Part shown: in pieces, positions 26,424-26,777 of the stretch
Position numbering within the stretch: the stretch's first letter is position 1
Layout: every line of letters begins with the position of its first letter
NCBI GenBank assembly: GCA_964016885.1
Contig: OZ024747.1
Location: 59,396,001-59,460,000 of the forward strand
From: Eledone cirrhosa
Taxonomy: Eukaryota
Direction of reading: 5' to 3'
DNA length: 64,000 nucleotides
The notes under the pieces: generated by a model
The model's input: the letters and a program-made list of their open reading frames with translations, nothing else
What the model was told of the DNA's origin: nothing
Database searches by the model: none
Translations under genes and position numbers: made by a program

Positions 26424-26577
26424 CTGTATTACTATCATAAAGAATTCTAGATGTAATTATCTTCCCACACAGCGAAAACAACTGCTCCAAATCTTGCTGG
26501 GTCATTGACTTTGGTAACCCACATATATACAAGTTAGCTCCCTTAATACTTTCACTACTGGGTCTTGCATATGACAC
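26424..26577 (-). CDS. elav: ELAV/Hu coding exon 3b (alternative copy B, tandem paralog of 3a)
   Basis: Hand translation: [51 protein letters not shown](G). Acceptor ttttag, donor CAG|GTTAGA. 154 nt, same phases as 3a, offset exactly 200 nt. Not in the ORF track. Confidence 0.92.
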
Positions 26578-26623
26578 CTAAAAATAATTAGTGAAGGTGG
26601 TTAATAAAAACCCCAGTCAGTAC

Positions 26624-26777
26624 CTGTGTTATTGTCATAAAGAATTCTGGATGTTATAATGAATCCACACTGAGAAAACAATTTCTCCAAGTCCAACTGA
26701 GTGAAAGACTTTGGCAAGCCACTTATGTACAAGTTTGCCCCTTTAATACTTTCACTGCTTGGTCGGGCATATGACAC
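26624..26777 (-). CDS. elav: ELAV/Hu coding exon 3a (alternative copy A; RRM1 end, linker, RRM2 RNP2 half)
   Basis: Hand translation: [51 protein letters not shown](G). Acceptor tttcag, donor CAG|GTACTG. 154 nt, phase 0 to 1, no stops. Not in the ORF track. Confidence 0.93.

Follow-up and report, generated by a model that had tools for sequence, protein, structure and literature searches.

Very old, mutually exclusive RRM2 exons in the elav1 gene of the octopus Eledone cirrhosa

ELAV/Hu proteins belong to the core RNA regulators of neurons, and how nearly identical members of the family diverge in role is an open question. The known routes of ELAV diversification are gene duplication and microexons in loops or in the hinge. 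In honey bee elavl2, as here, one ELAV/Hu gene is widened by alternative splicing; according to the main text of PMC8553928, however, the bee varies by loop and hinge microexons that stay within unstructured linkers, whereas the octopus gene described below swaps half of a folded RRM2. Neither 'mutually exclusive' nor 'mollus-' occurs in that main text. A survey of chordate, arthropod and nematode genomes (PMC2529313) deals with mini-exons and gene gain and loss, 'mollus-' again being absent from its main text; the ELAV junctions it names J3, which falls between codons, and J5, one base into a codon, have the same phases as the unit duplicated here. The pair belongs to the same class as the 236 human substitutions derived from tandem exon duplication that are described in the main text of PMC8373072, being likewise homologous, of equal length, old and frame-linked; 21 of the human cases date to Bilateria. 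'ELAV' is absent from that main text, and the elav1 event is lophotrochozoan. In the mutually exclusive exons of alpha-tropomyosin, as cited in PMC6692369, the 5′ splice site lies too near the branch point for one exon to be spliced to the other, as is proposed below for the octopus; the octopus intron is, however, short overall (46 nt) and its block would be lineage-specific, the corresponding introns at eight other loci measuring 95–729 nt. A search of open-access literature listings found no description of this ELAV exon pair; nor did a look-up of terms in PMC8111721, PMC7489019 and PMC9839350.

The gene studied here, elav1, lies on the minus strand of a 64-kb window, by which we mean the whole stretch of E. 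cirrhosa DNA that was analysed (64,000 nt). It extends from the Met exon at 52436 to the stop codon at 22221 and comprises the following features.

52232..52436, minus strand: coding exon from the Met (MDSQ...) through the first half of RRM1
36844..36894, minus strand: 51-nt frame-preserving exon adding 17 residues to the β2–β3 loop of RRM1
33747..33812, minus strand: 66-nt frame-preserving alternative exon adding 22 residues to the same RRM1 loop; present in P0121, not in P0128
27151..27254, minus strand: exon 2 (second half of RRM1), the upstream partner common to 3a and 3b
26624..26777, minus strand: exon 3a (upstream copy), covering the last strand of RRM1, the RRM1–RRM2 linker and β1-α1-β2 of RRM2; signature Ser19, Leu28
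26578..26623, minus strand: 3a–3b intron, 46 nt, GT-AG; its branch-like YTRAY sites lie no farther than 36 nt from the 5′ splice site, and it brings in an in-frame TAA if retained
26424..26577, minus strand: exon 3b (downstream copy), covering the same segment as 3a; signature Cys19, non-Leu28, Lys/Arg39
23069..23300, minus strand: exon 4 (second half of RRM2 and hinge), the downstream partner common to both copies
22221..22542, minus strand: last coding exon (RRM3) to the stop codon

On translation, exon chains containing 3a or 3b stay open to the stop in exon 5. RefSeq isoforms of O. bimaculoides end in exactly these sequences (3a in P0128, P0003 and P0130; 3b in P0036 and P0123); XP_052827078 (3a) and XP_052827079 (3b) are identical in sequence to the chains. 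Such mollusc ELAV-like RefSeq and GenBank models are automatic and carry no account of the pair, its age, the mechanism of exclusion or its function. Since events of this class are well known and both isoforms are already in automatic annotation, the surprise is limited. With three RRMs and a hinge, elav1 is a family member by architecture, and the 3a and 3b isoforms score 491 and 494 bits against the ELAV/HuD model TIGR01661 (cut-off 279), while their score against the sex-lethal model falls below its cut-off. An AlphaFold model of the 3a isoform displays three RRM folds. By percent identity to three named annelid Elav1 proteins (75–80%, versus 46–50% for two paralogs treated below), the gene is a candidate Elav1 ortholog. 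At the RRM1 loop, many arthropod and bivalve records carry unrelated inserts. The second insert of Doryteuthis (P0133) is a diverged repeat of the first, which suggests, from the sequences, another tandem exon duplication in squids.

The sequence comparison confirmed the two exons of the original prediction: each is 154 nt long, AG/GT-bounded and open in frame 0, and the two align without indels. They differ at 33 nucleotides, which change exactly the seven of 51 residues that had been listed (3a/3b: S/C, F/M, L/Q, K/Q, Q/L, F/K and N/S) and 20 codons synonymously, where the original prediction had counted about 20. As adjacent exons of equal length, phase and frame that are homologous to one another, they have the hallmarks of homologous mutually exclusive exons. 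The Nei–Gojobori method gives pS 0.72, pN 0.083, dS 2.3 and dN 0.088, so the proposed old duplication with both copies under purifying selection holds. The other four main coding exons of the gene have no duplicate within the window. A genome-wide search with 3a scored eight candidates and yielded four matches, namely 3a, 3b and two distant paralogs (52–55%); 3a and 3b are therefore no haplotype duplicate. That one copy is dead or made by assembly, which had been denied from the start, is refuted by the splice joints reported below and by a dN/dS of about 0.04 between the octopus copies, and its probability is practically nil. Several mollusc records for which the a form alone was listed (Sinanodonta, Aplysia, Lymnaea, Lottia, Potamilus, Pecten, Doryteuthis and Argonauta) would fit such a reading, but RefSeq has both forms for O. 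bimaculoides and O. sinensis.

Splicing was assessed in four runs from four studies (X1, X8, X10 and X14), mapped on 26330–27295. All are assembled contigs whose status as RNA was guessed, and spliced GT-AG joints were taken as the sign of RNA. The joint 27151>26777 (exon 2 to 3a) is present in all four runs and 27151>26577 (exon 2 to 3b) in three, both with canonical GT-AG ends; in X10, 3b is covered but its joint is not listed. Loose ends lead into exon 4 from 3a in four runs and from 3b in three, with at most one synonymous difference as read by eye, and X8 and X14 contain single 208-nt contigs running exon 2–3a–exon 4 and exon 2–3b–exon 4. Both copies occur within one run in all four cases and are spliced in contigs of three studies. 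Contig depths (3a:3b 30:30 in X1, 14:14 in X8 and 13:5 in X14; the figure for 3a in X10 belongs to a 1594-nt contig) were not taken to rank the isoforms. No 3a>3b joint is listed in any of the four runs; because assembled contigs can lose rare forms, a minor 3a>3b splice may exist. No loose end is listed at the exon 2 donor, the skip junction 27151>23300 lying beyond the mapped stretch. Exons 3a and 3b are mutually exclusive, as had been proposed, each being spliced between exons 2 and 4.

Including or skipping both exons shifts the frame, again as predicted, and the early stops lie 363 nt (both in) and 124 nt (both out) before the last junction; retention of the 3a–3b intron places a stop 409 nt before it. 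In general, stops that far before the last junction mark an mRNA for decay, and nonsense-mediated decay would remove the off-frame products. Counted from the 5′ splice site, the predicted branch adenosines of the 46-nt intron are at 23 or 36 nt. A passage of PMC6692369 gives about 50 nt as the minimum distance between 5′ splice site and branch point, with 35 nt abolishing assembly in one substrate. The octopus intron would be too short for 3a-to-3b splicing, a steric block that depends on the predicted branch point; among nine loci with both copies, the octopus is the only one in which this distance falls below about 50 nt. With longer introns elsewhere, frame surveillance and further regulators would have to enforce exclusion in those lineages. 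Dscam-type competing intronic duplexes were sought in 27 tests at the nine loci (250-nt flanks, 30 shuffles each): one test stood at 0/30 and one at 1/30 relative to the shuffles, with none recurring and none in the octopus. A motif scan run without a control gave TGCATG about 200 nt after 3b at three of nine loci and ACTAAY before 3b at five of nine, the latter most simply read as branch points. The b donor is GTTAG or GTCAG in the octopus, in both bivalve-like loci and in all three annelid-like loci.

If retained, the 46-nt intron would end the protein at an in-frame TAA eight codons past 3a. X1 contains a 103-nt contig through 26578–26623 (depth 12, flanking introns without listed cover), a weak hint of a retained 3a–3b intron. 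The pair might be kept mainly as a splicing dimmer, in which mis-choice sends elav1 mRNA to decay, possibly for ELAV self-control, and the protein differences are secondary. In its favour, all three off-products stop 124–409 nt before the last junction, and 3 of 14 presumed-RNA datasets contain all sampled words including the intron. The X1 contig, however, reaches fewer than 31 letters into either exon and could derive from DNA or pre-mRNA, the intron is long in other lineages, and residues specific to one copy, such as Leu28 in all 24 a copies that we collected, argue for selection on the protein. We regard this reading as very unlikely.

The copies collected form 24 a/b pairs from a chiton, gastropods, bivalves, the octopus, and annelid-like and bryozoan-like DNA, of which 13 were labelled by likeness rather than genomic order, which biases toward a split between a and b. 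Babylonia was omitted, its two records being a-type and on different contigs. Isoform pairs that differ in exon 3 occur in the chiton Liolophura, six gastropods, seven named bivalves and the octopus, that is, in four mollusc classes; tandem copies with a first are present in a Mya model and an oyster-type read-through. In P0001, a public gene model of Mya arenaria, the two copies are combined into a single protein; the model probably mis-annotates the mutually exclusive pair. A metagenome scan yielded 71 loci, 14 with two copies, 48 with one and 9 with none at the chosen threshold. After dropping L016–L021, which repeat L015, eight two-copy loci were kept and, with the octopus, make up the nine DNA loci. 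Judged by what their remaining exons match best, two of these are bivalve-like (L005 and L006), three annelid-like (L008, L010 and L024) and three bryozoan-like (L011, L015 and L025). Loci with a single copy comprise spliced or short contigs, distant paralogs and sequences of an unplaced animal group, four loci of which (L031, L039, L042 and L044) have a single copy between exons 2 and 4. Among named records, Bugula neritina has one model of each type on different contigs (P0421 and P0332), while annelids contribute a-type records from Paralvinella and Phascolion and b-type records from Malacoceros and Dimorphilus. The arthropod and vertebrate records retrieved include no such isoform pair. 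The original prediction understated the exon switch, which is not peculiar to this animal: four mollusc classes have it, as do annelid-like and bryozoan-like loci.

At all nine DNA loci, both exons measure 154 nt, a precedes b, and the copies carry Ser (a) and Cys (b) at position 19; synonymous sites between them are near or at saturation. Over the 24 pairs, every a copy has Ser19 and Leu28, whereas b copies have Cys19 in 20, a residue other than Leu at position 28 in 23 and Lys/Arg39 in 18. The exceptions to the first two b signatures are the b copy of L005, which has Leu28, and four gastropod b copies with Ser19. DNA identity between the copies is 79% in the octopus and 60–68% at other loci, and at position 49 octopus 3a has Asn, whereas Gln is the residue in 16 of 17 mollusc a copies; these features make partial gene conversion in cephalopods possible. 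Seven flatworm and chaetognath records (P0014, P0082, P0083, P0364, P0427, P0432 and P0072) are b-like or neutral on an a/b profile, none being a-like; these groups may have kept only b, or an a form may have escaped retrieval. In the Logan protein P0331, a genomic read-through, a Cys-type copy precedes a divergent Ser-type copy in tandem; this would be either reversed order or an independent duplication in an animal that is unplaced.

The split of molluscs, annelids and bryozoans is older than about 530 million years. Because order and Ser/Cys signature are common to all nine DNA loci, a single a/b duplication before that split is very probable, as judged from sequence comparison. In a 52-row tree, a and b fall on either side of one branch while phylum labels need four changes; on 51 columns the support of this branch is weak (50/77), and the a/b label needs one change in 95% of 200 bootstrap trees. 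A 71-row tree requires two changes of the a label. When trained on the 17 mollusc pairs alone, a profile assigns all 14 non-mollusc copies to the right type; for 12 of these, DNA gives the genomic order. The alternative, independent duplication in molluscs, annelids and bryozoans (or re-duplication in cephalopods) followed by convergence, has precedents, since the main text of PMC8373072 reports convergent tandem exon duplications, three times in ACOX1. AU tests in which each group was given its own a+b clade retained the annelid (p 0.15) and octopus (p 0.18) clades, and both the higher DNA identity of the octopus copies and the Cys-first order of P0331 would suit such a history. The bryozoan clade was rejected, however (p 0.002); the like order and polarity at all nine loci, the classification across phyla and the common b donor sequence also tell against convergence, and the octopus identity equally fits slow change or partial gene conversion. 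We hold independent origins to be quite unlikely and retain the single early duplication.

Exon residue n corresponds to HuR residue 92 + n in an alignment to 4ED5, the offset having been checked against residue names. PMC13635762 places 15 HuR residues of this segment within 4.5 Å of RNA (94, 96–100, 103–105, 107, 109, 132, 133, 136 and 138). Octopus 3a and 3b agree at every one of these, so the two RNA-binding surfaces of the original prediction are not borne out, although HuR 111 ends strand β1. The seven octopus differences map to HuR 111, 117, 120, 124, 128, 131 and 141, none of which is in the contact list. At 13 of the 15 contact positions, a and b are identical in each of the 24 pairs; HuR 100 differs in seven pairs and 96 in one, and HuR 134, a contact in the simulation list, differs in six. 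In the AlphaFold model of the 3a isoform, with pLDDT of about 84–93 over the segment, the differences lie at the end of β1 (Ser/Cys19, HuR 111), in the loop before helix 1, in helix 1 (two), just after it, just before β2 and in the β2–β3 loop, so that three or four are in or at the end of helix 172–179. The invariant a-type Leu28 occupies the position of HuR K120, a SUMO site (PMC11025316, in part). Passages of PMC11838611 describe the neighbouring T118 as a phospho-site on a helical face proposed for protein contacts, and RRM2 as a supporting domain that contacts only two uracils.

Because the differences miss the HuR contacts, because one of them falls at a SUMO position next to a phospho-site on the helical face, and because RRM2 contacts only two uracils, we infer that the swap affects partners, multimerisation or modification more likely than the grip on RNA. 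An effect on RNA binding through positions 111, 131 and 141 is possible from the alignment. In its stronger form, the copies would change the RNA specificity or affinity of the RRM1–linker–RRM2 clamp through the Ser/Cys at the end of β1, the basic residue before β2 and the β2–β3 loop. Ser111 aligns as the RRM2 counterpart of the RNA-contacting Asn25 of RRM1; Lys/Arg39, present in 18 of 24 b copies and one of 24 a copies, shifts charge beside the contact Ile132; and position 49 differs in all 24 pairs, its HuR equivalent Gln141 having bonded RNA in a simulation (PMC13635762, same part). Against this stand the identity of all crystal contacts in the octopus, 13 of them in every pair, and the supporting role of RRM2, and we consider altered specificity unlikely. 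We favour, as reasonably probable, a mutually exclusive elav1 pair that arose by one duplication before the phyla split and yields two ELAV proteins alike in their RNA-contacting core and unlike in their outer RRM2 surfaces. The conserved differences (position 28 in α1, the loop before β2, the β2–β3 loop and the Ser/Cys at the end of β1) would then alter partners, multimerisation or modification more than the target motif.

The contrast drawn in the original prediction between exon switching and gene duplication is not borne out. Contig C18 of the octopus genome (G000) carries two intronless ELAV-family open reading frames (L003:1258–2181, plus strand, and L004:955–1914, minus strand), head to head on opposite strands and about 7 kb apart. 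Both score above the TIGR01661 cut-off; their identity is 61% between themselves and about 50% with elav1. They are probably a duplicated Elav2 type, to go by sequence, a lophotrochozoan-specific Elav2 being known (part of PMC7489019). Given these two paralogs and the two loop-insert exons, exon switching is an addition: it supplements gene duplication and loop insertion in the octopus without replacing them.

Exons 3a and 3b are thus a real, expressed and very old mutually exclusive pair in elav1, whose function we infer from the positions of their differences. By analogy with the split of vertebrate Hu paralogs, we tentatively entertain a two-state switch that predates the separation of the phyla, in elav1, the gene that serves as the pan-neuronal marker of these animals: cell type or neuronal maturity would decide between a Ser/Leu and a Cys/basic form, and the two could differ in partners or in redox or modification control and so serve different regulons. 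The flatworm and chaetognath records being b-like, the switch may even date to Spiralia. What is swapped is a folded half-domain, by an exon pair kept over three phyla, and the fixed copy-specific residues give a few testable positions: HuR 111, 120, 131 and 141. Where elav1 probes serve to mark neurons, as in octopus, squid and annelids, they would miss the difference between the isoforms unless designed for it.
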